Source: a virus
DNA length: 17,746 nucleotides
Virus genome (UHGV): UHGV-0072542
Reading direction: 5' to 3' (one strand)
This document shows, piece after piece, positions 2,702-17,696 of this stretch. Every line of letters begins with the position of its first letter. Position 1 is the stretch's first letter. The notes beneath the pieces were generated by a model. The model saw only the letters and a program-made list of their open reading frames with translations. It had not been told where the DNA came from and made no database searches. Position numbers and translations under genes: made by a program.

Positions 2702-2902
2702 CTACTCCCCCCACAACTGAATCATTTCTCGTTTCTTCTTCTCCGGCTCCGGCATCTCCACTTCCTGCCCGGCGTCCAGAAATACCTGCTGACAGAGTCC
2801 GGGGTTGGCATCCAGCACCTTTTCGGTGACGCCCTGTGTCGTGCCGTAGTACCGGAAACAGAGCGAATCCACGGTGTCGCCTTCCAGTGCCTTCACTTTC
2901 AT
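2702..2902 (-). CDS. X: tail protein X (P2 gpX-like, LysM-like)
   Basis: MKVKALEGDTVDSLCFRYYGTTQGVTEKVLDANPGL matches the recalled P2 gpX pattern (MKTFALQGDTLDAICVRYYG...). The ATG at 2900-2902 overlaps the gpL stop as ATGA. Confidence 0.8.
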   Translation of the reverse strand: MKVKALEGDTVDSLCFRYYGTTQGVTEKVLDANPGLCQQVFLDAGQEVEMPEPEKKKREMIQLWGE

Positions 2903-3446
2903 CAGCACAGCTCCGCAAACATTCGCGGTCGTCCCAGAATGTCAGAGATGGCCCAGCTCACATCGCGCCACAAATCCGATGTCTGTATATCCAGTGCGTC
3001 CGCCCGGCGATCGCCCTTGTCCGTTGTGTCCGCATCGCGGTAACGCTCCAGAATCAGGGCACGTGTGGCGGTATAAACAGCATTGCGCCAGTGCCAGAGA
3101 TTGACGCTTTCTCCGTTAATTACGGGTGCCGGAACATCGGCCAGCGTCTGATGGCCCACCACCCGCTCGCCCGATTTGAAAGTGAATGGCCCGGCGTCTG
3201 ATGGCCGCCCGCCTGCTGTTCCTGCTGCCACGCTTCCAGTTCGCGGGTAACGTGAGCCACGGCCCCAGTGGCGGTATGCAGCAGGCGGGAGGTGGTCACG
3301 CGGCCCGGCAGTCGTACCGCCAGACGCAGCTCGCGCAGCACAATATCCGGCCAGAATGCACCTGCTGAAATGCGAGTGTCGCCATCATCGGTATCGGTGA
3401 TGTCGTCCTCTGCGGGTCCTGGTTCAGTTCTGGCAACCATACTCAT
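2902..3446 (-). pseudogene. L: head completion protein gpL, reading frame interrupted (N-terminal part in frame of 3120-3446, C-terminal part in frame of 2902-3231)
   Basis: N-part FWPDIVLRELRLAVRLP...LEAWQQEQQAGGHQT and C-part GHQTLADVPAPVINGESVNLWHW...ERYRDADTTDKGDRRADALD each align to recalled P2 gpL but lie in different frames. The junction coincides with a 13-bp direct repeat GCGTCTGATGGCC (3144-3156 and 3194-3206) spaced 50 bp apart. Removing one 50-bp period restores a continuous gpL-like ORF. Confidence 0.55.
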
Positions 3447-6462: not shown

Positions 6463-8214
6463 ATGATTCAGGACGCTTTTGTGCGCCAGCGTGCGCAGCA
6501 ACTTTACTGGCAGGGTTATCCGCCCGCAGAAATATCACGTCTGATGGGAATAAACCCGAACACGATTTATGCGTGGAAAAAACGCGACCAGTGGGATGAA
6601 ACGCCACCCGTGCAGCGTGTCACGCAGTCCATCGATGCGCGCCTCATCCAGCTTACTGAAAAACAGAATAAAACAGGCGGTGACTTTAAGGAAATAGACC
6701 TGCTGACCCGGCAGCTTAAAAAGCTGCATGATGGCCAGCCGGATGTGATGGCCGCAGGAAAGAAAGGCCGGGCGAAAAAACTCAAAAATCATTTCACGCC
6801 GGAACAGATTTCCGCACTGCGGGAAAAAATCATCAGCAGGCTGGAGTGGCATCAGCGGGGCTGGTTTGACTCCCTGACCCTTTGCAGGGAAGCCGGGATA
6901 CGTAACAGGATGATCCTGAAATCCCGACAGATTGGGGCGACCTGGTATTTTGCACAGGAAGCTCTGCTGATGGCGCTGCGTGACGATGTGGCGCAACCTT
7001 ACCAGCGTAACCAGATTTTTTTGTCTGCGTCGCGTCGTCAGGCGTTCCAGTTTAAAAGCATTATTCAGAAGGCCGCGGCTGAAGTTGATGTGGAGCTGAA
7101 AGGGGGCGATAAAATCACCCTCTCCAACGGCGCAGAGCTGCATTTTCTCGGCACTTCTGCTGCGTCGGCACAGTCCTATACGGGCAATTTTTATTTTGAT
7201 GAATTTTTCTGGGTCAGTCGCTTTGCTGAACTGCGCAAGGTGGCTGGCGCTATGGCAACCCTCAGCGGACTGCGGCGCACCTACTTCTCCACGCCATCCA
7301 CCGAAACGCACGAGGCATACGCCTACTGGAACGGCGACCGCTGGAACGAGAAAAAGGCCTCGCATAAACGCCAGCGTTTTTCTGTGGACTGGAAAACGCT
7401 GCATAACGGGCTTATCTGCCCTGACCGGACGTGGCGGCAAATTGTCACGCTGGAAGATGTGGTTAATCACGGCTGGAAACACACCGATATCGACGAAATT
7501 CGTGATGAAAACACCGAAGACGAGTTCCTCAATCTCTATATGTGTGAGTTTGTCCGCGAAGGGGAATCGGCATTTAACCTGAATATCCTGATTGGCTGCG
7601 GTGTTGACGGATACGACGACTGGAAAGACTGGAAACCTTTTGCTCCCCGCCCGATGGGGAATCGTCCGGTATGGATTGGGTATGACGCAAACGGCAGCAG
7701 TGGAAACGGCGACAGCGGCGCAGTGTCCGTGGTGGTTCCTCCGGCTGTTCCTGGTGGCCGTTTTCGAACGGTGGAGACGCGACGCGTTCAGGGGCTGGAG
7801 TTTGAAGAACAGGCCAGAGTCATTGAAGAGTTCACGTATCGCTACAACGTGGAACACATCGGCATTGATGTGACGGGCGGGAACGGGGAGGCTGTTTATC
7901 AGATAGTGAAACGGTTTTTCCCTGCAGCTATTCCGTACACCTTCACGCTGTCATCAAAACGGTCGCTGGTACTGAAAATGCTGCAAATAATGCGCGCCGG
8001 GCGGTGGGAATACGATCGCGCTGAACGCGAGCTGGTCGCAGCCTTTAACGCCGTGCGTAAGGTGAAAACACCGGGCGGCTTTATCACTTACGAAACGGAC
8101 CGCGCGAGGGGGATCAGCCACGGCGACCTTGCGTGGGCAACCATGCTTGCTGTCATTAACGAACCGATTGGCGGCGAAGGAGAAAACGAGCGTTTCACGG
8201 TTATGGAGTTCTGA
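6463..8214 (+). CDS. P: terminase large (ATPase) subunit (P2 gpP-like)
   Basis: 583 aa. ATG at 6463 preceded by GGGGGAG. Sequence character and position immediately upstream of the portal gene fit P2 gpP. Confidence 0.9.
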   Translation: MIQDAFVRQRAQQLYWQGYPPAEISRLMGINPNTIYAWKKRDQWDETPPVQRVTQSIDARLIQLTEKQNKTGGDFKEIDLLTRQLKKLHDGQPDVMAAGKKGRAKKLKNHFTPEQISALREKIISRLEWHQRGWFDSLTLCREAGIRNRMILKSRQIGATWYFAQEALLMALRDDVAQPYQRNQIFLSASRRQAFQFKSIIQKAAAEVDVELKGGDKITLSNGAELHFLGTSAASAQSYTGNFYFDEFFWVSRFAELRKVAGAMATLSGLRRTYFSTPSTETHEAYAYWNGDRWNEKKASHKRQRFSVDWKTLHNGLICPDRTWRQIVTLEDVVNHGWKHTDIDEIRDENTEDEFLNLYMCEFVREGESAFNLNILIGCGVDGYDDWKDWKPFAPRPMGNRPVWIGYDANGSSGNGDSGAVSVVVPPAVPGGRFRTVETRRVQGLEFEEQARVIEEFTYRYNVEHIGIDVTGGNGEAVYQIVKRFFPAAIPYTFTLSSKRSLVLKMLQIMRAGRWEYDRAERELVAAFNAVRKVKTPGGFITYETDRARGISHGDLAWATMLAVINEPIGGEGENERFTVMEF

Positions 8215-9260
8215 TGAGCAGAAAAAATAAAAAAGTGCGCATGAGTTCACGCATTGATCTCGCTGATGCGCTCAGGAAAGAATCATCGCTCAGTGCATTC
8301 ACATTTGATGGTCCTTATCGCCTGACCGGGCATGACCTGCTGGACAATATGTACTGTGCTGATAACGGGCGGTGGTATGAAACCCCGGTGGACTGGTACG
8401 GTCTGGCAAGAGCTGCCCGGCAAACGTCCTGGCATCAGTCTGCGCTTTACTTTAAGCGCAATGTATTACTCGGTTGCTACATCCCGCACCCGCTGCTTTC
8501 CCGGCAGGATTTCTCGGCGCTGGCGCTGGACTGGTTTGTGTTCGGTAACGCATTCCTTGAGCTTCGGAGCAATATGCTCGGCGAACCGCTTAAATTACGG
8601 CACGCCCTGGCGAAATACATGCGACGCGGAAGCGATCTTGAATCATGGTGGTATGTGCAGGATGGCAAGGACGCGTTTCAGTTTCGCCCTGACAAAGTGT
8701 GCCACCTGATGAATCCGGATATTAACCAGGAAATCTACGGCATGCCGGAATATCTTGGCGCATTACTCTCGGCCAGCCTTTCTCATTCGGCGGACATGTT
8801 CAGAAAACTGTACTACGACAACGGATCCCACGCCGGGTGCATCATCTACATCGGTGCAGCGCAGGTAAACCGCGAAAGCATGGACTCCCTGAAAGAAACG
8901 CTACAGGGTGCGCGTGGTGGTGGTGCGTTTAAAAACGTGCTCATTCATGCGCCCAACGGGGGCAAAGAAGGTGTGCAAATTTTGCCGTTCCAGCAGATCA
9001 CCGCAAAGGATGAGTTCATGAATGTTAAGGCGGCATCCCGTGATGATGTACTGGCTGCGCACCGCGTTCCGCCGCAACTGATGGGGGCGATGCCGGGCGA
9101 AAAAAGTGCGTTTGGTGATGTGGAGAAGGCCGCGCGGGTTTACGCAATTAACGAGCTGATGCCCGTCATGGAGGCCATGAAGCACATCAATGACTGGCTT
9201 GGCGAAGAGGTGATCCGCTTTAACCCTTACGCACTGTTAGACACCCAGCCCACATCCTGA
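8214..9260 (+). CDS. Q: portal protein (P2 gpQ-like)
   Basis: 348 aa; the start overlaps the terminase stop (TGATG). Size and position fit the P2 portal. Confidence 0.85.
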   Translation: MSRKNKKVRMSSRIDLADALRKESSLSAFTFDGPYRLTGHDLLDNMYCADNGRWYETPVDWYGLARAARQTSWHQSALYFKRNVLLGCYIPHPLLSRQDFSALALDWFVFGNAFLELRSNMLGEPLKLRHALAKYMRRGSDLESWWYVQDGKDAFQFRPDKVCHLMNPDINQEIYGMPEYLGALLSASLSHSADMFRKLYYDNGSHAGCIIYIGAAQVNRESMDSLKETLQGARGGGAFKNVLIHAPNGGKEGVQILPFQQITAKDEFMNVKAASRDDVLAAHRVPPQLMGAMPGEKSAFGDVEKAARVYAINELMPVMEAMKHINDWLGEEVIRFNPYALLDTQPTS

Positions 9261-9286
9261 CGCGCTTCGCTTGTCTGCTGCTTCGC

Positions 9287-9311
9287 CGGGGCATAAAAAA
9301 TTTATGCCCCG
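9287..9311 (+). terminator. hairpin downstream of portal gene (possible terminator; no clear U-tract)
   Basis: cggggcataaaaaatttatgccccg is a palindrome lying 27 nt after the Q stop. Confidence 0.3.
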
Positions 9312-9612
9312 ACTCTCCAGCTCCTGTATCAGTCAGATAATTTCACGACGCCTTCCAGTTTATCGCCACCATCGACGGTCAGGCTCTTACGCAATCCCAC
9401 CGCGTTGACTGCATGTTCTCGCCGCCTCAGTGCGATTTTGACGGCCTTACCTTTCACCCCATTAAATCAGAATCCCTCACGTATTTTTCACGCTCAGCGT
9501 GAGAAATACGGCCATTCTGTCGTGTCGCTGCGACATCGTTAAGGGAACGCTATTTACCCCCTGAAACGCGGGCTGTTCCCCCGTCACCTGCGCGCAGAAA
9601 AAACGCGTTTTT

Positions 9613-9711
9613 TTGTGCATGCACGGATCCTTGACGGATCCAGCCGCCATGCGGGCCGAAAGGGTAAAAAGTCGTTCAAAAAAATTGTGCAAATTTGTGC
9701 ACTATTGTGCA
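9613..9711. repeat. TTGTGCA direct repeats (three copies at 10-bp phasing, plus one upstream copy embedded in palindrome GTGCATGCAC)
   Basis: TTGTGCA occurs at 9685-9691, 9695-9701 and 9705-9711, and again at 9613-9619. The region is intergenic, between cos (expected nearby) and the cargo operon. Confidence 0.5.
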
Positions 9712-9718
9712 TTGAAAT

Positions 9719-9740
9719 AAACGCCCTGGAGGAGGGCGTT
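9719..9740 (-). terminator. intrinsic terminator at the end of the cargo operon (hairpin with T-rich flanks both sides)
   Basis: aacgccctggaggagggcgtt has an 8-bp stem and is flanked by T/A-rich runs. It lies immediately 3' of the stop at 9745-9747. Confidence 0.5.
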
Positions 9741-9744
9741 TTAC

Positions 9745-10152
9745 TTATCTTTTATAGCCTTGCCCCTTTCTGGCCAGCGCCCTGATGGCCGGGCGTGCCA
9801 ACACCATATTTTGGCAATGATGAATTGCCCGGCAAAATTCATCTCTACCCATTGGATGCTCAACTGGCAACGTTAAATACAGGTTCCATGCGTCGCCTAA
9901 AAGTTGGGCTATCTTTTGTTCTTCAGATGTCAGCAAGCAAGCGGTATCCGTAAAATAATCATACTTTTCATGTATGTTATTTAACGGTTTTGTCTGTAGT
10001 GCAGCCTGAGCTATACGGTATGCCTGAAGCATACTGGCGTCGTTGATATCCATTCCGAACGGAATTTCTGATGATTGTGACTCTGCATCTTCAAGCCTGG
10101 CAATTTCTTTACGTAAGAAGTACTTCAACTCTTGTTTCTGTTTTCTGTTCAT
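9745..10152 (-). CDS. hypothetical protein (135 aa), second gene of two-gene cargo cassette
   Basis: The ATG at 10150-10152 overlaps the upstream stop (ATGA). The gene is AT-richer than the flanking phage genes. No recognisable family; the product is [25 protein letters not shown]...[28 protein letters not shown]. Confidence 0.6.
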
Positions 10153-10481
10153 GCGTTTTTTTCCTTTTTGTCTGTCACTTCTTTCCTGATAATTTCATTG
10201 CACAAATCCACGCACTCATTGCAGATGTAAACAGACGGTCCGGCAATCACCTTTGTGACTTCGTACTGGGATTTATTGCAGAAACTGCAATAAACCGTCT
10301 TCTCGCCTGAAGTCCATGTTTTGCTGGTTTCGCCAGACATCAGTTGTTTGAGGTCTTTTTCACGACGAAGAACTATCTGGCCACATTCAGCTATTTTTTG
10401 GATGTTGACATTTTCTGCTTTCGCCAGCGCTTCCATCCGCTCAATCAGTCGCTGCGCTTTTTCTCTGTCAATGTGTTGCAT
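10149..10481 (-). CDS. small protein with C-terminal ClpX-type C4 zinc-binding domain (ZBD) and N-terminal helical region
   Basis: The C-terminus [40 protein letters not shown] is near-identical in pattern to the N-terminal zinc-binding domain of E. coli ClpX ([34 protein letters not shown], recalled). ATG at 10481 with an AAGGGGGA SD 5 nt upstream. Confidence 0.7.
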
Positions 10482-10544
10482 TGTGTCCCCCTTGTTTATG
10501 CTCCCGGGTTAAAGTCATCAGGGCGGATGCGCCCTGATGTTGTG

Positions 10545-10856
10545 TTATTCGGGAAATAACGCCCGGATATTTCCGGCCATCTGACTGGTTATCTGTGCGG
10601 CTGATACTGGCTGTGACGCGGGGCGTTCTGTCCTGGTTTGTGTCACTGATAACGCCTCATCATCAGCCCATGCAGCCAGTCGGTAAGCCTCTGCCGGATT
10701 CATTTTCAGTAGTGCCAGCCCGGCCAGAAAAGCCACGCGTTGACCACTTTTGCGGGCTTCTGGTGTAAGGCTGTCCAGCCAGGCGCATGCTTCGCCTTCG
10801 TTCTTGACGGCGGCGGGCTTCAGATAGAAACTTATCCGTCTGGTTGGTGTCGTCAT
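10545..10856 (-). CDS. parR: ParR-like centromere-binding protein (type II partition)
   Basis: RRISFYLKPAAVKNEGEACAWLDSLTPEARKSGQRVAFLAGLALL resembles the recalled R1 ParR N-terminus (RTIAFKLNPDVNQTDKIVCDTLDSIPQGERSRLNRAALTAGLALY). It lies 4 nt downstream of parM. Start taken at the internal ATG at 10856. Confidence 0.65.
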   Translation of the reverse strand: MTTPTRRISFYLKPAAVKNEGEACAWLDSLTPEARKSGQRVAFLAGLALLKMNPAEAYRLAAWADDEALSVTQTRTERPASQPVSAAQITSQMAGNIRALFPE

Positions 10857-10860
10857 TGGT

Positions 10861-11820
10861 TTACTCCTTGTCCATTGCGTACAGCCCATTAACCAGAGCA
10901 AACTGTGGCACCCCGTCCGCGATGAAGGTCGCATTAACTCCGCAGGCTTCGCGGATAGCGGGTGCCACAATCTCCGCCCCGCCACCGACAACCATCACCC
11001 GCCCGTAACCCGAAAAACCCGCCAGCGCGCGGATCACGCGTTGTTTCAGTGTTTCTTCCTTTTCACGAATAACCGCCATCAGGCTGGCGTAATGCGCGTC
11101 ATTGTGGATGTGCTGGCGCAGCCAGGCTTCATCATGGCGATGTTCGATAATGGTATTGGCGATGTGGTGACTGGTACGCATACCGTTAGTGGCCATCACC
11201 GACAGTACGGCATCGGCCATCAGGGAAACGCCTACGTGTGGATCGCAAAACACCTGGCTGATACCTGCCAGTTGTCCCTGAACCTTTGCCACATCCAGCG
11301 TGGTTCCGCCTAAATCCACAATCAGCAGGGATTCAAACGGACTCATGTCAGCCAGTGCTTTAAAACCAGCCGGAATGGATTCAGGCATAACCCGTACGTT
11401 ACGGATAGTGAATGCTTTTCCGTTCTGGTACGCCACCGGGCGCATGACGTTTGCTTTTTTGCGGTTGATGTTGGCCATGTCCGGCTGTGCGTTTGTGTCG
11501 AAATATTCGCTCAGTGGCAGGGTGACAACCACATCCACTTCCTGTGGTGTGATGCCTGATTTGACCAGCGCGTGATGAATGGCAATGACATTCACATCGC
11601 TGTACTGGTATTGCGTGTCGGTCGTCTGGACAAAGCGATCGCTGACTGGATCAAAACCATAGCGCACGCCATCAAGCATGTAGTTCGCGGGCTGCGTGCC
11701 ACCGAACGGCGCAGACCATTCCGACTTGAAGCTGTTCGGGCTGATGGCGTTGCGGCGTTCGCCGTTCTCAGTCCATGCCAGCTTGATGTTGGTGGAGCCG
11801 TCATCGATACAAATTTTCAT
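10861..11820 (-). CDS. parM: ParM/StbA-like actin-like segregation ATPase
   Basis: 319 aa. IDDGSTNIKLAW, ISPNSFK, YSDVNVIAIHHAL, IRNVRVMPESIPAG, LLIVDLGGTTLDV, VMVVGGGAEI and VNGLY match the recalled plasmid R1 ParM along its whole length. ATG at 11820 with an AAGGAAAA SD. Confidence 0.85.
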   Translation of the reverse strand: MKICIDDGSTNIKLAWTENGERRNAISPNSFKSEWSAPFGGTQPANYMLDGVRYGFDPVSDRFVQTTDTQYQYSDVNVIAIHHALVKSGITPQEVDVVVTLPLSEYFDTNAQPDMANINRKKANVMRPVAYQNGKAFTIRNVRVMPESIPAGFKALADMSPFESLLIVDLGGTTLDVAKVQGQLAGISQVFCDPHVGVSLMADAVLSVMATNGMRTSHHIANTIIEHRHDEAWLRQHIHNDAHYASLMAVIREKEETLKQRVIRALAGFSGYGRVMVVGGGAEIVAPAIREACGVNATFIADGVPQFALVNGLYAMDKE

Positions 11821-11850
11821 GTCGCTTTTCCTTATGTTGATTAATTAATC

Positions 11851-11962
11851 GTTTACGGGATTCTGAAATCCCGTTTTTGCCTGTTTTATGCGCGCTTCAT
11901 ATATCGCGGCGCGTTTTTTGCTCATTTACGGGATTTGTGAATCCCGTTTCTGTCTGTTTTTT
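11851..11962. repeat. two copies of a ~35-bp hairpin-containing repeat flanking the A stop / parM upstream region
   Basis: Copy 1 is tttacgggattCTGAaatcccgttttt (hairpin 11855-11874). Copy 2 is tttacgggattTGTGaatcccgtttct (hairpin 11928-11947). Both are followed by T-runs on the plus strand. Spacing is 73 bp, and copy 2 lies inside the 3' end of gene A. Confidence 0.5.
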
Positions 11963-14719
11963 GTTTCCACTGGTCAGGCCACCCCGCAGCAGGTCTGCTT
12001 TGCGGCGGGCGCGTTCAGTGGTTTCACTGATTCTCTGTGCGTGCTCTGCGTCGCGGATGGCGCGCAGCATGTCAGAAAGCACGGTAACGGGTGTTTTCAT
12101 GGTGTTCTGGTCCTGCTGAAGTGTGGATGCCAGGCGTGCGGCGGCTTCGGGGTCTGATGCCCCCAGCTGTTCCAGATAGCTGGCGACCGGGTTATGGCGG
12201 ATCTCCGTGCTGCTTACGCCGTGGTTACGGCTCAGGCGCTGCCAGAGCTGCGTGATCCGGCTGTCCGGTCGGGTATCCGGTTTGCGTACAATTTCAAATC
12301 CCTGCGGTGCAATGATGCTGCCGTCAACGTACAGGCTGCCTCCCCGTAACAGGTGCTGCATCTGCTGTTCACCGATATGCAGGCCGAGAGATTCGGCAGA
12401 TTCCCGCCATTCTTTAGCGAGTAATTCGTGGTTATCAGGCAAAGGCCGCGGCTGTTTGCGGCTCTGTGTCCAGCTCTGCATTTCATCACTGCTGTTTTTT
12501 GCCTGTTTGTCACGCAGCGAACGCATCAGCGCCCGGCGTTCGTGCCGTTTCAGTGAGCGCATCCATTCATTCACATCAATGCCGTCAGGAAGCTGCGGCC
12601 ATGGTGCTGGCCGTTCTTCCGGCTGTTCTGTCCCGTTGTTGTCCGTTTCCTGTACACGGGGACAGTTATTGCCACGAGTCCAAGGGGCGGCAGGGCCGCC
12701 CTGAAGGTCAAAACCATTTTCGCGGGCGCTGTCTTCAGCTTCCGGTTTGCGTCTTACCAGCTTCCAGTTATCCGGATGCGTGCACACACGGGAGGATTCC
12801 CCGATGAGTGGTGACCAGATCCCGTAAATCTGTACGCTCTGTTCGCCGTAATCGTTCAGCTCATCGGCGAGGTCGTAGGCGGTGCGAATCAGGTAGTCTT
12901 TGCGTGGAACAAGTACGCCGCCCTGTTTCTCTATGTAGGTGGCAAAACATCCGGCATCAGCGGCAGCGAGTACCGCATCCATTGCGTCATCCTTCAGCCG
13001 TTGCGGGCCTTCCGGGTTGCGTGCCATCTGGCTGGCAAGGCGGCGGAGTTCACGCCACACCTGACGGGAGGGGATGCCAAAGAACTGGAACTGGCGGACC
13101 CGGTGAAGGCGCGCCCAGCCAATGGCACGCTCCACGCTCTCGGCCATTGATTTTCCGGATTCATGGTCAACGCGTGGTTTGCCCGTTTTCGGGTCGATGC
13201 CATCCACGGCGCGGCTGTCCAGGTTTTTTCCGATGTAGGTCGCGATATAGCTGGTTGGTGTGCCTTTTGAGCCGTCGACGTACTCCGCCTCAAAGCGCGG
13301 GGTTATGTCATCGCCCAGCTCGTGGCGGTCTTCCTGAATGGCAATATCGCAGACGTGAGACACAATGGTGTCGATTTCGTCCGGATGCGCAAAAACCATC
13401 ATGTGCCAGTGCACGGTACCGTCATGGTGAGGCTCCGCTGTGCGGATGCCATACCAGCGCAGACCTTCACGGTTCAGTTTCTTGCGGACCGCTGCAAAAA
13501 ACGTGTTAACCAGGTAATCGCTGGAGTCGCGCATGGTGGCCCCGTTCCATTTGGGATTCGGATGACCGTTCTCTGTTGTTGCGTGGTATTTTGACGGGCA
13601 GGTGACAGTCAGAAACACCGCTCTGTCGCCACGGGCTTCGGCCAGAAGTTCCAGTCCCTTCATGGTGGCCATCATTTCTGCCTTACGGTGAACCGGGTTA
13701 CTTACTCCCGCGTAATACACTGTCTCGAGATCAATCGTGAACCCGTCTTCGTTTTCCAGCATGAAACTTTTCAGGAAATCGCGTGTTTTCTCGCGCTGTG
13801 CGCGAAACTCGCTTAACGCGTCCTGGCTCAGATAGGGCGATGTTTTTCTGGAAACCAGACAGGCGGCGCGGAGTTGTTCTTCTCTCCACTCGCAACGTAA
13901 CAGCCACAGTTTGTGTTTCCACCATTGCGCACAGGTCAGGCGAAGGATTGCGCCCGGCAGCAGCTCCGTGTCCGGTTCGTTCCTCCGGTCTTTGTCTGTT
14001 GTCAGTGCGTCATAATGCGGAGGCATGGCGTGCAGGTGTAACGCCATGCGGGCCAGCATCTGATACGCCTTCAGCGTTACATCCATGGTCAGCTCGCCAT
14101 CAGTCGCGCCAAAGCCATCGCAGAGTTTTTCGAAGGTGCTGCTGAACATCGCCGCCGTCATGGTGGCCAGCGTCTGTATCTGGTGCTTGTTGAGCTGCGG
14201 CAGGTAAAGCAAATCATCCAGGCGTTCGCGTCCGGCAAGGGAGCGATAACCCGGTGTCAGCCAGTGTCCGTCAGTGCGATCCAGACGTTCGAATATTTTG
14301 CGCAGGGTTCCGCGTGCATAGCGTTCCGCCTGCCAGCTCTTTTTGCCTTTCCGGCGATCGGCTTCCTGTTTTTTGCGCAGGAAGGAGAGGTGGCGAATAA
14401 GCGGATCGCGCAGATAGGACGGCAGCAGGCGCAGCGAGGCCATGGCTTCATCCACCGCGCCGCGTGCCTGTTTTCTGGCGTCTCCTGCCAGTGTGATGGT
14501 TTTGTCCTGTTTTTCCTGTGCGTCCAGGCTTTTATTAATCAGGTTGCCCAGCGGCGTGGCGGAGAACGCCGCATCAGCCATTTCCTGGCGGCGCTCGTTC
14601 TCTACCCGGTAGGCATCCAGCCAGGAGGAAAGCGCGGATTCAGGAGCGGGGATCCCCGTTCCTTCACGCCCCACTGCGTGGCGCGGTTGTTGCCAGTCCC
14701 TGATGTACTCTGCCGTCAT
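11897..14719 (-). CDS. A: replication initiator endonuclease (P2 gpA-like, rolling-circle HUH family)
   Basis: 940 aa with the HUH-type motif VHWHMMVFAHP and the paired-tyrosine motif TSYIATYIGKN. Its position downstream of the early operon fits P2/186 gene A. Confidence 0.85.
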   Translation of the reverse strand: MTAEYIRDWQQPRHAVGREGTGIPAPESALSSWLDAYRVENERRQEMADAAFSATPLGNLINKSLDAQEKQDKTITLAGDARKQARGAVDEAMASLRLLPSYLRDPLIRHLSFLRKKQEADRRKGKKSWQAERYARGTLRKIFERLDRTDGHWLTPGYRSLAGRERLDDLLYLPQLNKHQIQTLATMTAAMFSSTFEKLCDGFGATDGELTMDVTLKAYQMLARMALHLHAMPPHYDALTTDKDRRNEPDTELLPGAILRLTCAQWWKHKLWLLRCEWREEQLRAACLVSRKTSPYLSQDALSEFRAQREKTRDFLKSFMLENEDGFTIDLETVYYAGVSNPVHRKAEMMATMKGLELLAEARGDRAVFLTVTCPSKYHATTENGHPNPKWNGATMRDSSDYLVNTFFAAVRKKLNREGLRWYGIRTAEPHHDGTVHWHMMVFAHPDEIDTIVSHVCDIAIQEDRHELGDDITPRFEAEYVDGSKGTPTSYIATYIGKNLDSRAVDGIDPKTGKPRVDHESGKSMAESVERAIGWARLHRVRQFQFFGIPSRQVWRELRRLASQMARNPEGPQRLKDDAMDAVLAAADAGCFATYIEKQGGVLVPRKDYLIRTAYDLADELNDYGEQSVQIYGIWSPLIGESSRVCTHPDNWKLVRRKPEAEDSARENGFDLQGGPAAPWTRGNNCPRVQETDNNGTEQPEERPAPWPQLPDGIDVNEWMRSLKRHERRALMRSLRDKQAKNSSDEMQSWTQSRKQPRPLPDNHELLAKEWRESAESLGLHIGEQQMQHLLRGGSLYVDGSIIAPQGFEIVRKPDTRPDSRITQLWQRLSRNHGVSSTEIRHNPVASYLEQLGASDPEAAARLASTLQQDQNTMKTPVTVLSDMLRAIRDAEHAQRISETTERARRKADLLRGGLTSGNKKQTETGFTNPVNEQKTRRDI

Positions 14720-15478: not shown

Positions 15479-15678
15479 CTGCGTGACTCCTGTACCTGTC
15501 TGATAAGATTCACCTGCACCACGTTGGTGGCGCAGAAGTAAGTGCCGTCAGTGAGATAGATGTGATGTGCATCCTTTTCTGAACGGTGTTTGTCGATTGT
15601 GGTAATCAGGCGTTCGTCAACTTCGTATTCACGTCCTCTGGAGGTGAAACGAACGACAGGAAAATGCTTAATTGCCAT
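15475..15678 (-). CDS. hypothetical early-operon protein (67 aa)
   Basis: The internal ATG at 15678 is preceded by an AAGGAGG SD 5 nt upstream. The ORF-track start at 15729 is a GTG with no SD. Confidence 0.5.
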   Translation of the reverse strand: MAIKHFPVVRFTSRGREYEVDERLITTIDKHRSEKDAHHIYLTDGTYFCATNVVQVNLIRQVQESRR

Positions 15679-15764
15679 TACGCCTCCTTGACGTGTGCGA
15701 ATACCTCCGCGAATGCGGATTGTTTTCACATTTTCTTATTTAACCTGGGGGCTTATTTGCGCGG

Positions 15765-15878
15765 TTATTCTTCAGTGAAAAAGCGTTCAATCTTTTTTAC
15801 TGAATTAATAATTCGCATAATCCCAATGGCGCAGACCACCGAAATAATCAGAACAAGCCATGAGATAAATATACTCAT
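15765..15878 (-). CDS. small hydrophobic peptide (37 aa, single predicted transmembrane helix)
   Basis: Hand translation gives MSIFISWLVLIISVVCAIGIMRIINSVKKIERFFTEE. The ATG at 15876-15878 overlaps the stop of the upstream gene (ATGA). Below the ORF-track length cutoff. Confidence 0.4.
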   Translation of the reverse strand: MSIFISWLVLIISVVCAIGIMRIINSVKKIERFFTEE

Positions 15879-16117
15879 GCGATATTTCCCAGCTTATACG
15901 GTTCAATATGTTCCCCGCATTCTGCGGCATAGATCAGCTCGGAAAGTTCGTTAAGTGCATCCAGATCATCAGCGTAAAAAGCCACGTCATACAGACTTCG
16001 GATTGCTCTGGTCAATGAGTCACGGGCCGCACGTTCAGCATGAGCGCCTGATGCACTTAAGCGAAAATAAAAACGCTCAAGTGCTTTGTTAATGAGAGTT
16101 TTATATTCTTTGCCCAT
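15875..16117 (-). CDS. hypothetical early-operon protein (80 aa, acidic)
   Basis: ATG at 16115-16117 with an AAAGGG SD. The ORF-track start at 16120 is a GTG. Confidence 0.5.
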   Translation of the reverse strand: MGKEYKTLINKALERFYFRLSASGAHAERAARDSLTRAIRSLYDVAFYADDLDALNELSELIYAAECGEHIEPYKLGNIA

Positions 16118-16128
16118 CACAACGCCCT

Positions 16129-16407
16129 TTAATCTGCTTTCTGAATTTCAGCTTCTGAATCCATACAAATAATTTCGATATAGGGTTCATCGTCATTAAC
16201 CTGACGTGCCTTTTCAGCTTCGCTAATGATTTCTCGTACGGTCTGGTACGGAAGCTCCACAGTCAGGCGCGTACCGTTCAGATAAACGTAAGTAGCTGCG
16301 TTTTTTTCGAATGGAACAACTCCGTCAATGGCTGATGCGCGTAATAACAGTTCACCGCGAAAATCAATAAAACGGATAAATACACCTTGTGCATGCTCTT
16401 TGGTCAT
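16129..16407 (-). CDS. hypothetical early-operon protein (92 aa)
   Basis: The internal ATG at 16407 has an AGGUG SD 5 nt upstream. The ORF-track start at 16467 is a TTG. Confidence 0.5.
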   Translation of the reverse strand: MTKEHAQGVFIRFIDFRGELLLRASAIDGVVPFEKNAATYVYLNGTRLTVELPYQTVREIISEAEKARQVNDDEPYIEIICMDSEAEIQKAD

Positions 16408-16417
16408 AAAGCACCTG

Positions 16418-16768
16418 TTATAAATCAGCCTGTTTAATAAAACTTTGCCCGCGAAGCAGACGATCAACCGTGCGAAGTGCTTCGTATAATGTGAAATCCT
16501 GCCCGAAGTGATTGTCGCCGCAGTTCAATGCAAAAATGCGGTTTCCGGTAAACGGATTGCGTGGGCATTTGTGGACCACGATTCCAGCTTTCTCAATCAG
16601 CCAGGCATGCTCGCCGATTTGTTTTACAGCGTGGCCATCCGGTGTTGCGTGCGTCTCGTTCAGGTTATAGCGACTGTTACTACGTGATGCACTGGTAGCG
16701 ACGTGGTGTACATGGCGTTCTACGCCATTACGAAATTTGGAGTATGGATTATTAGCGTTTTTTTTCAT
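16418..16768 (-). CDS. hypothetical early-operon protein (116 aa), possibly regulatory
   Basis: ATG at 16768; basic N-terminus. Its position corresponds to the cII/regulatory slot of 186-like early operons, but no motif was confirmed. Confidence 0.5.
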   Translation of the reverse strand: MKKNANNPYSKFRNGVERHVHHVATSASRSNSRYNLNETHATPDGHAVKQIGEHAWLIEKAGIVVHKCPRNPFTGNRIFALNCGDNHFGQDFTLYEALRTVDRLLRGQSFIKQADL

Positions 16769-16789
16769 GATGGTGCTCTGTTCATTGTT

Positions 16790-16993
16790 TTAGCTGTTAG
16801 CCAAAGCGTCTTTTAACATCGCCACAAGGTTTACTTCAGGCTTTTCCATTTTGGCGCGTTTGGGTCGGATAATAATTCGACCGTCAGCCAACATCTTTTT
16901 GCATGTATTAAGAGGGATACCTGTTATCTCTGCATATTTCTGCAGGGATACATAGGGGGCATTCACATTGATATTGATGGTTATACCTGACAT
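16790..16993 (-). CDS. small putative DNA-binding protein (HTH; excisionase/Cox-like candidate)
   Basis: 67 aa. YVSLQKYAEITGIPLNTCKKMLADGRI looks like a helix-turn-helix. ATG at 16993 with an AGGAGG SD. Confidence 0.5.
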   Translation of the reverse strand: MSGITININVNAPYVSLQKYAEITGIPLNTCKKMLADGRIIIRPKRAKMEKPEVNLVAMLKDALANS

Positions 16994-17009
16994 CCCACTA
17001 GCCTCCTGA

Positions 17010-17216
17010 TCAGGAAGATTTGTTTTGTTCTTTCTGGGTTAGCTCTAGGCCGCGAAGGAAGATCATGCGCGCCATGTTAGAGGATGAGCGTTGTTCTTTA
17101 GCTGCCATTTCATCAATGACGGCTCGCTCCTCGAGGGACAGCCGAAGTGCCAGTCTTGGACCTGTGGCGGTGTTACGCGGAATGCGTGATCTGGTATCGT
17201 GAAGAACTTGTTTCAT
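17010..17216 (-). CDS. first early-operon gene; putative ribbon-helix-helix-like regulator (Cro/Cox/Apl position)
   Basis: 68 aa. RLALRLSLEERAVIDEMAAKEQRSSSNMARMIF has a beta-strand-helix-helix pattern. It is divergent from the repressor gene and sits directly downstream of the operator/promoter. Confidence 0.45.
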   Translation of the reverse strand: MKQVLHDTRSRIPRNTATGPRLALRLSLEERAVIDEMAAKEQRSSSNMARMIFLRGLELTQKEQNKSS

Positions 17217-17291
17217 AGTGGTATATTGTGATCATCTAATAGCTCGTGAAATCATTTTGGTATCAAAAAAGATACCTGTCAAGGTTTTTGT
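17217..17291. promoter_or_regulatory. divergent switch region: early promoter (minus strand) with palindromic operator in its spacer
   Basis: Minus-strand TTGACA (complement of 17277-17282), a 17-nt spacer, then a CAAAAT -10-like hexamer. The spacer contains the perfect palindrome GGTATC-AAAAAA-GATACC (17259-17276). A GGTAT half-site-like copy lies at 17219-17223. Confidence 0.45.
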
Positions 17292-17696
17292 ATGAAAAAT
17301 GATATTGGTCAGCGGTTGCGTGAGGAAAGGGAAAGATTGGGACTTAGTCAAGTTGCCATGAGCGACATTGGTGGAGTCAAAAAGCTAACTCAGCTTAGAT
17401 ATGAGAAAGGAGATAGCTTTCCTGATGCTGCGTATTTGGCAGCGCTGTCTCGTTTTGGCCTTGATGTTCAGTATGTTGTGTTGGGAATTCACTCATCTGA
17501 AACTTATAACGATGATGAGCAGGAGTTGATTACTCGCTTTCGAGCAGCTTCGTTAGATGTGAAAAATGCGGTGATTGGGGCTTTAAAAGGTGCGATCAGT
17601 GAAAAGGAAACTCAGCCATCAGGACGTGAGTTAAATATTTCTGGTGGTAATAACCGTATCGCTGGTCGTGACTATAACGAAACTAAGGGTAGGTGA
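17292..17696 (+). CDS. phage repressor, XRE-family HTH (immunity repressor candidate)
   Basis: 134 aa. IGQRLREERERLGLSQVAMSDIGGVKKLTQLRYEKGDSFPDAAYLAALSRFGLDV is a canonical XRE HTH. The gene is divergent from the early operon and AT-rich. Confidence 0.8.
   Translation: MKNDIGQRLREERERLGLSQVAMSDIGGVKKLTQLRYEKGDSFPDAAYLAALSRFGLDVQYVVLGIHSSETYNDDEQELITRFRAASLDVKNAVIGALKGAISEKETQPSGRELNISGGNNRIAGRDYNETKGR

Follow-up and report, generated by a model that had tools for sequence, protein, structure and literature searches.

Module exchange beside a lineage-conserved parMR operon at the gpA-gpQ locus of a P88-like prophage of Escherichia coli

What lies at the old/tin position of a P2-like phage that lacks old and tin, and was it acquired as one block or in parts? 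The question is raised by the virus genome UHGV-0072542, of which a stretch of 17,746 nucleotides was analysed (hereafter the window). Its interval 9261-11896, between the portal gene Q and the replication gene A (gpA), holds four minus-strand genes, as an earlier note made from the sequence alone had stated and as gene calls and Pfam domains bear out. They are parM and parR of a putative partition system, and two short AT-rich genes, orf110, coding for a stand-alone ClpX zinc-binding domain (ZBD) protein, and orf135. The interval is 97% identical to that of Escherichia phage P88 (Xuanwuvirus, Peduoviridae), and over its full length the window matches, at 99.97% identity, a prophage in the chromosome of E. 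coli Z1323HEC0010 that has its own integrase and adjoins yecA-tyrP. In the window the genes for capsid N and scaffold O (minus strand) are followed by those for terminase P (6463-8214) and portal Q (plus strand), ca. 480 bp of non-coding DNA, the four minus-strand genes, and gpA. We consider it very probable that this interval represents the variable A-Q locus, close to cos, of a chromosomally integrated P88-like (Xuanwuvirus, P2-family) E. coli prophage, built of three layers and comprising a two-gene slot co-transcribed with parMR. The first layer would be a conserved non-coding cos-side flank (9261-9711), the second a variable slot of ca. 0.8 kb (~9712-10481), at or close to whose two ends there are stem-loops (9719-9741 and 10516-10539), and the third, directly downstream of gpA, the parM-parR operon, a type II partition system fixed in the lineage and provided with a candidate centromere.

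The layers were delimited by mapping homology breakpoints against twelve related loci, and this alignment to P2-like relatives, which the earlier note had called for, separates the conserved parts (the non-coding DNA on the Q side and parMR with gpA) from the variable insert. In the twelve relatives the flanks are 95-99% identical, and the slot, of 539-1559 bp, is occupied by unrelated genes: an Ead/Ea22-like gene, a plus-strand DUF4760 gene, a Mom-like gene, and assorted hypothetical ones. On the left, the homology of all relatives extends through the flank to 9711-9762, with breakpoints at 9711, 9732, and 9762; the module breakpoints further on are at 9984, 10148, ~10481-10519, and 10542. 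The one at 9984 is common to P88, PhiR44_2, and the prophages L005 and L007, which keep the ZBD gene and the first 56 codons of orf135 and have a different C-terminus of the latter. Strain ET358 keeps the ZBD gene up to 10148 and has different genes downstream. The right breakpoint is at 10519 in P88_4B11, where the conserved leader CCTTGTTTATG is followed by an unrelated Ead/Ea22 gene, and at 10542 in the Citrobacter phage Shae_phiSM, which has its own terminator; in one relative the joint is the start codon of the first cargo gene itself, ~35 nt past the hairpin. Moreover, exactly 10178-10456 is missing from L006 and L021, an in-frame deletion between two 14-bp repeats which leaves a 13-codon remnant of orf110 (L006 2953-3052). 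The slot content has thus been swapped by recombination among otherwise 95-99% identical phages, with joints in the conserved flanks, at the codons that start or end the first cargo gene, and at the internal module junction of orf135; a separate microhomology deletion between the 14-bp repeats has removed orf110.

The modules also differ in frequency. Among 5,426 complete E. coli genomes, the sample used for all the counts given below, parMR is found in 1,307 (90-100% identity), the interior of the ZBD gene in 112, the N-terminal module of orf135 in 161, and its C-terminal module in 112. The whole AT-rich stretch with both distal genes (9700-10545, at least 80% coverage) is present in 14 genomes, and orf135 without the ZBD gene, by subtraction, in ca. 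100. Since parMR is conserved in the lineage and the full block is rare, the AT-rich part is the mobile portion of the locus and parMR is a fixed feature of the lineage. The AT-rich pair is not one cassette but at least three independently exchanged modules, i.e., the ZBD gene and the two halves of orf135. Taken together, the comparative mosaicism and the frequencies uphold the proposal of the earlier note that at least two independent acquisitions took place at a known exchange hotspot. Two outcomes had been named there as incompatible with it, the universal conservation of the four-gene block and a uniform base composition; the block is found in 14 genomes versus 1,307 with parMR, and the composition is not uniform by either sliding-window G+C content (GC) or the GC and third-codon-position GC (GC3) of the genes.

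The lowest 400-nt segment of the whole sequence is 9801-10200 (GC 0.400; mean 0.537, standard deviation 0.049), and the GC of orf110 and orf135 is 0.435 and 0.434, respectively, with a GC3 of 0.43 in orf135. parM (GC 0.547, GC3 0.63) and parR (0.554) equal the phage backbone, represented by gpA (0.577) and P/Q (0.54). Of the previously described succession of GC-rich parM and parR and an AT-richer cassette, the AT-richer pair (~0.43) therefore stands, and the special status of parMR does not. A second AT-rich block, with GC of 0.41-0.45, is formed by the early/immunity region at 15500-17400, so that in this phage low GC by itself does not mark DNA as recently acquired.

The partition genes are complete. 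ParM matches StbA_N (6.9e-82, model positions 1-157 of 158) and the ParM C-terminal domain (1.3e-68, 1-159 of 159), and ParR matches Plasmid_stab_B (3.9e-24, 1-71 of 72); parR lies 4 nt after parM and is annotated as a 312-nt gene in all the relatives. Among all the P88-like phages compared, parMR and gpA show 97-99% identity. The alignments and the composition indicate that parMR is a lineage-fixed backbone module of the P88-like phages, with ameliorated composition, and not currently mobile cargo. Its recent capture from a plasmid was ruled out, as the nearest plasmid parM shows ~66% nucleotide identity over 45% of the query. A 42-nt repeat occurs twice upstream of parM, and each copy contains a 20-bp palindrome ACGGGATT-N4-AATCCCGT (11855-11874 and 11928-11947, spaced 73 bp), the second of which sits within the 3' end of the gpA coding sequence. 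Two palindrome matches were observed versus 0.07 expected by chance, and both palindromes are present in all 13 parMR loci and in none of the nine loci without parMR, an association confounded with the gpA type. They are candidates for a parC centromere/operator, with putative sites for ParR.

P2-like phages with a putative partition system have been suggested to persist as plasmids (PMC9122126). It is worth mentioning that L021 (NZ_CP148288.1, 1-34461), a complete P88-like phage with an integrase, has been entered in the databases as a circular 'plasmid' of 34.5 kb; of the seven PLSDB records with this parMR it alone is a phage-sized circle, and it lends thin support to that suggestion.

The first gene of the slot, orf110, codes for a protein composed of a helical hairpin (aa 6-48), a flexible or disordered linker (aa 52-59), and the ZBD (aa 62-110). 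Its residues 62-102 align with the ZBD of E. coli ClpX (PDB 1OVX, 2DS5), with 30 of the 36 core residues identical (83%), and in the AF2 model (predicted local distance difference test, pLDDT, 80) the ZBD superposes on 2DS5/2DS8 with a root-mean-square deviation of 0.7 A (Foldseek). The zinc ligands C65, C68, C87, and C90, in a CxxC...CxxC arrangement, are invariant across the orf110 family, and the conserved F67 and I97 align with residues F16 and I46 of ClpX, which form a hydrophobic patch docking lambda O, SspB, RssB, and trigger factor (PMC7804408). The AAA+ module is absent: the protein has 110 aa and ends 11 residues past the ZBD helix, and the NCBIfam ClpX models match at positions 3-54 only. 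The ratio of nonsynonymous to synonymous substitution rates (dN/dS) between the copies of the family is 0.2-0.4, and the family is therefore under purifying selection. A perfect 10-bp palindrome, TTTATTGCAG-AAA-CTGCAATAAA, occurs at 10272-10294 in the ZBD coding sequence, at the first CxxC codons.

Full-length homologues of orf110, 42-53% identical, are found in several phage settings. In other P2-like lineages, devoid of parMR, the ZBD gene is also located in the A-Q locus, alone in a Salmonella lineage (it stands alone in L014-L017) and, in a lineage of E. coli, flanked by unrelated genes. A lambdoid prophage has a full-length homologue (50% identical in the compared copy) in its nin-like early region, where it lies between rusA and the replication genes, and plasmid-annotated records of ~106 kb have ZBD homologues adjoining Ead/Ea22 and DUF551 genes. 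The homologues in the lambdoid and plasmid-record contexts are at 4823-5146 in L024 and at 4823-5146 in L023; the L023 'plasmid' also has the chromosomal metG and apbC genes and may be misassembled. The family is shared by temperate phages of at least the P2-like and lambdoid types, and the ~106-kb plasmid-annotated records add further copies. The DNA matches listed for the ZBD gene are annotated as stand-alone ClpX zinc-finger genes on chromosomes or plasmids. That the ZBD was recently captured from clpX of the host was ruled out, as chromosomal clpX gave no match at the DNA level, only 178 of the 5,426 genomes being matched at all. A conserved partner of the ZBD gene was ruled out too, the genes of 173-174 aa following it in the compared contexts, L008 and L024, being unrelated to each other and to orf135. 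Searches of the literature on phage ClpX zinc-finger proteins returned nothing relevant.

It is possible, and is put forward here tentatively on the grounds of alignment and structural model, that orf110 belongs to a phage-encoded family of stand-alone mimics of the ClpX N-domain (helical hairpin plus ZBD), encoded among early accessory genes and titrating ZBD-dependent adaptors or substrates (SspB, RssB, or those of the lambda O and MuA type). Such a protein would be a decoy of the ClpX docking domain, occupying the adaptors and substrates that dock on the ZBD hydrophobic patch, and would serve an early accessory function rather than an old/tin-like defence expressed by the prophage. Were this so, the decoy could protect replication or regulatory proteins of the phage against ClpXP, or reprogramme host proteolysis, e.g., RpoS turnover or the exclusion of ClpX-dependent phages such as Mu; it would give temperate phages a new means of interfering with a central protease of the host and would provide a simple, testable reagent.

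The second gene, orf135, has a composite structure. Its C-terminal module, over aa ~70-135, is also found as a stand-alone protein of 75-86 aa in Hafnia, Enterobacter, Pectobacterium, and Yersinia, in Pectobacterium within the A-Q locus of another P2-like prophage, and its N-terminal module is joined to at least four different C-termini in the relatives (alternative fusions P0140-P0149). The aligned sequences establish orf135 as a fusion of two modules, independent of orf110. A search of Pfam gave no match to orf135, and a sequence search of PDB gave none at E up to 10. The NCBI name 'carboxylate--amine ligase' and the PHROG label 'DNA ligase' borne by these small proteins are without support from domain searches.

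The leader between the parR stop codon and the start codon of the first cargo gene contains a strong Shine-Dalgarno sequence and a hairpin, CATCAGGGCG-GATG-CGCCCTGATG, with a perfect 10-bp stem folding at -17 to -19 kcal/mol; the chance expectation of perfect 10-bp hairpins in the interval is 0.017. The hairpin lies 5 nt past the parR stop codon, and the orf110 start codon is 34 nt further on. A palindromic hairpin separating the two gene pairs had been reported in the earlier note at ~10510-10535; it does exist, its true position being 10516-10539, and it is near the composition jump, but as a boundary it is misplaced, since it sits on the conserved parMR side and not at the joint. In P88_4B11 its stem is kept (7 contiguous bp) with a different loop and another cargo gene after it, and the junction is degenerate in Shae_phiSM; on the alignment evidence we place the hairpin on the conserved, backbone side of the joint. 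The T-rich tail, TTGTGTTATT, is on the plus (antisense) strand, and the tail on the minus (sense) strand is ACTTTAACCC. The hairpin might terminate antisense transcription arriving from the side of the P-Q operon, stabilise or attenuate the mRNA between the cistrons, or do both.

We infer that orf110 and orf135 are co-transcribed with parMR and the early operon because of their co-orientation, the strong ribosome-binding site, the ATGA overlap of the two genes, and the lack of promoter-like motifs in the 34 nt after the hairpin. The hairpin could otherwise be an intrinsic terminator of the parMR unit, the AT-rich genes forming a second unit with its own promoter, and its very stable stem (-17 kcal/mol) so close to the parR stop codon, its location at the composition jump, and the preservation of the stem with another loop in P88_4B11 are all as expected of one. 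A terminator of this kind would, however, be followed by a U-tract, and the sense strand after the stem reads ACUUUAACCC, the T-run being on the plus strand. In addition, the stretch between the hairpin and the orf110 ATG has a Shine-Dalgarno sequence and, in a promoter scan of low sensitivity, no promoter-like hexamers, and no promoter-like site was found on the minus strand in the 3' end of parR. The T-run on the antisense strand and the absence of a promoter-like motif after the hairpin make co-transcription more likely than two transcription units, which we regard as unlikely. A simpler view of the composition jump itself, that the GC drop reflects a local constraint on short genes or regulatory DNA within one co-inherited block, with no separate acquisitions, can appeal to the similarly AT-rich early/immunity region of the same phage, but it is hardly credible given the presence/absence and replacement polymorphism of the AT-rich part between phages with 95-99% identical flanks.

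The absence of old and tin claimed in the earlier note is confirmed: in tblastn against the window, P2 Old had no match anywhere and P2 Tin only matches with E > 1. Rfam (E up to 1) and tRNA scans found nothing. Could the two genes of the slot, orf110 together with orf135, make up one cassette, of the anti-phage defence or the toxin-antitoxin kind, expressed by the prophage and replacing old/tin? In favour of this, the hotspot has been validated as one for defence (PMC9122126), both genes resemble many morons in being AT-rich, and their ATGA overlap suggests translational coupling. Against it, a PADLOC scan of the four proteins and an open reading frame of the cos region gave nothing credible, orf135 alone having a marginal match (E = 0.012). 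The two genes do not obligatorily co-occur, as ~100 genomes each have one gene only and 14 have both; a clean deletion of orf110 is tolerated, and the ZBD gene is alone in Salmonella P2-like phages. Furthermore, the pair is co-oriented with the early replication operon, whereas old/tin are divergent with their own promoter, homologues are found among early nin-type genes in a lambdoid prophage, and the arrangement was catalogued in a study whose table of tested systems nevertheless has no ClpX-domain entry (PMC9122126). The independent frequencies and the unrelated neighbours of the ZBD gene argue against a two-gene cassette, which appears improbable, and favour a stand-alone early accessory gene.

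Several points weigh against the reading of the locus preferred here, i.e., a recombinationally swapped slot co-transcribed with a fixed parMR module and containing a gene for a putative ClpX decoy. The palindromes upstream of parM are confounded with the 940-aa gpA type and resemble plus-strand terminators, and the partition function is putative, as 1,453 of the 1,455 parMR copies are chromosomal and there is only one phage-sized circular record in PLSDB. Co-transcription and the role of the hairpin are deduced from sequence motifs and the low-sensitivity promoter scan, and the module frequencies are BLAST coverage classes rather than counts from a locus-by-locus table. For orf135 the AlphaFold model has a pLDDT of 51 and is not reliable. 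The decoy role is suggested by a conserved fold and two patch residues, which do not demonstrate binding, and an exhaustive HMMER search with the N-terminal hairpin of orf110 gave 11 hits, all of the same family or spurious, with no informative fusions.

The coordinates of the features discussed are collected in the table below.

Table. Features of the gpA-gpQ locus in the window and of its flanking genes
Feature	Position	Strand	Remarks
Portal Q	8214-9260	+	Phage_portal (Pfam); left boundary gene
Conserved non-coding cos-proximal region	9261-9711		Left flank; Q terminator hairpin 9287-9311; three 10-nt repeats 9681-9711
Bidirectional terminator-like stem-loop, 9-bp stem	9719-9741		Terminator scan; left edge of the slot
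orf135	9745-10152	-	No Pfam match
orf135 C-terminal module, aa 57-135	9745-9984	-	PHROG 13916; small helical module, function unassigned
orf135 N-terminal module, aa 1-56	9985-10152	-	PHROG 660; ATG overlaps the orf110 stop codon (ATGA)
orf110, stand-alone ClpX zinc-binding domain (ZBD) protein	10149-10481	-	Pfam zf-C4_ClpX 6.9e-18
14-bp repeats (family D6)	10164-10177 and 10457-10470		Endpoints of the orf110 deletion in relatives
Junction/leader, parR stop to first cargo start codon	10482-10544	-	Hairpin 10516-10539 and strong Shine-Dalgarno sequence AAGGGGGA
parR, StbB-type adaptor, 103 aa	10545-10856	-	Pfam Plasmid_stab_B; PHROG 2515 partition protein
parM, actin-like segregation ATPase, 319 aa	10861-11820	-	Pfam StbA_N and ParM C-terminal domain
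Two copies of 42-nt repeat (family D1)	11849-11963		Upstream of parM; candidate parC centromere/operator
gpA replication endonuclease, 940 aa	11897-14719	-	Pfam Phage_GPA 1.3e-128; right conserved flank

The left flank is 92-97% identical in 16 of 16 Xuanwuvirus phage records. The earlier note had expected the cos region here, and a conserved non-coding block is indeed present; cos itself was not demonstrated, as neither the P2 cos 19-mer (up to three mismatches allowed) nor a blastn search with the P2 right end gave a match. The only positional hint for cos comes from the linear record of P88_4B11, both termini of which map to 9666|9667, and the location of cos within the flank is plausible. 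The 10-nt repeat AAAATTGTGC, present in about three copies starting 15 nt past this record-end point, may be a terminase or cos element. The stem-loop at the left edge of the slot folds at -12.4 and -13.8 kcal/mol, has T-rich tails on both strands, and is likely the end of the minus-strand operon.

On the other side, gpA is 31% identical to gpA of P2 and longer (940 vs. 761 aa); the homology to P2 gpA stops at ~12488, leaving ~190 C-terminal residues without a match. Far from the locus, a 50-nt insertion at 3157-3206, between the copies of a 13-nt direct repeat GCGTCTGATGGCC, is missing from L004, the prophage of 99.97% identity. It puts the gpL-like head-completion gene (2902-3446, minus strand) out of frame, and taking it out restores an open reading frame of 164 aa, so the phage copy in the window may be defective.

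The gpA-gpQ locus is well known as a hotspot: 1,650 gene arrangements were described in 18,150 loci, about a quarter of P2-like phages were found to have a putative partition system there, and Table S5 of that study contains the entry 'StbA + Plasmid_stab_B + zf-C4_ClpX + hypothetical' (Rousset et al. 2022, PMC9122126). Rapid swapping and formation of chimeras at the same hotspot have also been reported (Moura de Sousa et al. 2026, PMC13586616). Since both the hotspot and this very arrangement have been published, the finding is ordinary, already known in kind and arrangement; the locus is a textbook P2-family cos-proximal hotspot, and the value of its analysis is descriptive. New are the module-level breakpoints, which give the exchange sites at base-pair resolution (terminator-like stem-loops, start and stop codons, an intragenic module junction, and a 14-bp microhomology), and the reassignment to the lineage backbone of parMR, the half of the locus earlier counted as hotspot content and fixed in the P88 lineage. 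The zinc-finger gene is recognised as coding for a protein whose modelled structure closely copies the docking domain of ClpX and which occurs in at least two phage families, and this stand-alone ZBD protein is the only element of the locus with a wider potential.

The locus resembles that of old/tin in P2 in its position between A and Q beside the presumed cos, its conserved flanks, and the fast-swapped interior. It differs in having neither Old nor Tin, in cargo co-oriented with gene A and without recognisable defence domains, and in that about half of it, parMR, is fixed in the lineage. The partition operon is similar to type II ParMRC systems (R1 parMRC; StbA/StbB), in that an actin-like ParM of full length precedes a ParR of the StbB type and palindromic sites are repeated upstream of parM. 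Unlike the plasmid systems, it is carried by an integrating phage, with nearly all its copies (1,453 of 1,455) chromosomal, and its nearest true plasmid parM is only ~66% identical in nucleotide sequence. parC of R1 consists of arrays of 11-bp iterons, in contrast to the two 20-bp palindromes of the candidate centromere described here.

In the slot, orf135 is like the lambdoid Ead/Ea22-like and DUF551 accessory genes of the nin/ea type in having a shared N-module and swappable C-modules, and the ZBD and Ead/Ea22 genes are neighbours in the lambdoid prophage, the plasmid-annotated record, and P2-like loci; unlike Ead/Ea22 and DUF551, it matches no Pfam family, and its link to that gene pool is by context and architecture, not by demonstrated homology. 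orf110 differs from E. coli ClpX in being phage-borne, with no detectable DNA similarity to the host clpX, and in having a family-specific helical hairpin before the ZBD and no AAA+ module after it. It shares with the N-terminal ZBD of E. coli ClpX (1OVX, 2DS5-2DS8) the C4 zinc ligands, 83% of the 36-residue core, a modelled fold superposing at 0.7 A, and the residues of the docking patch.

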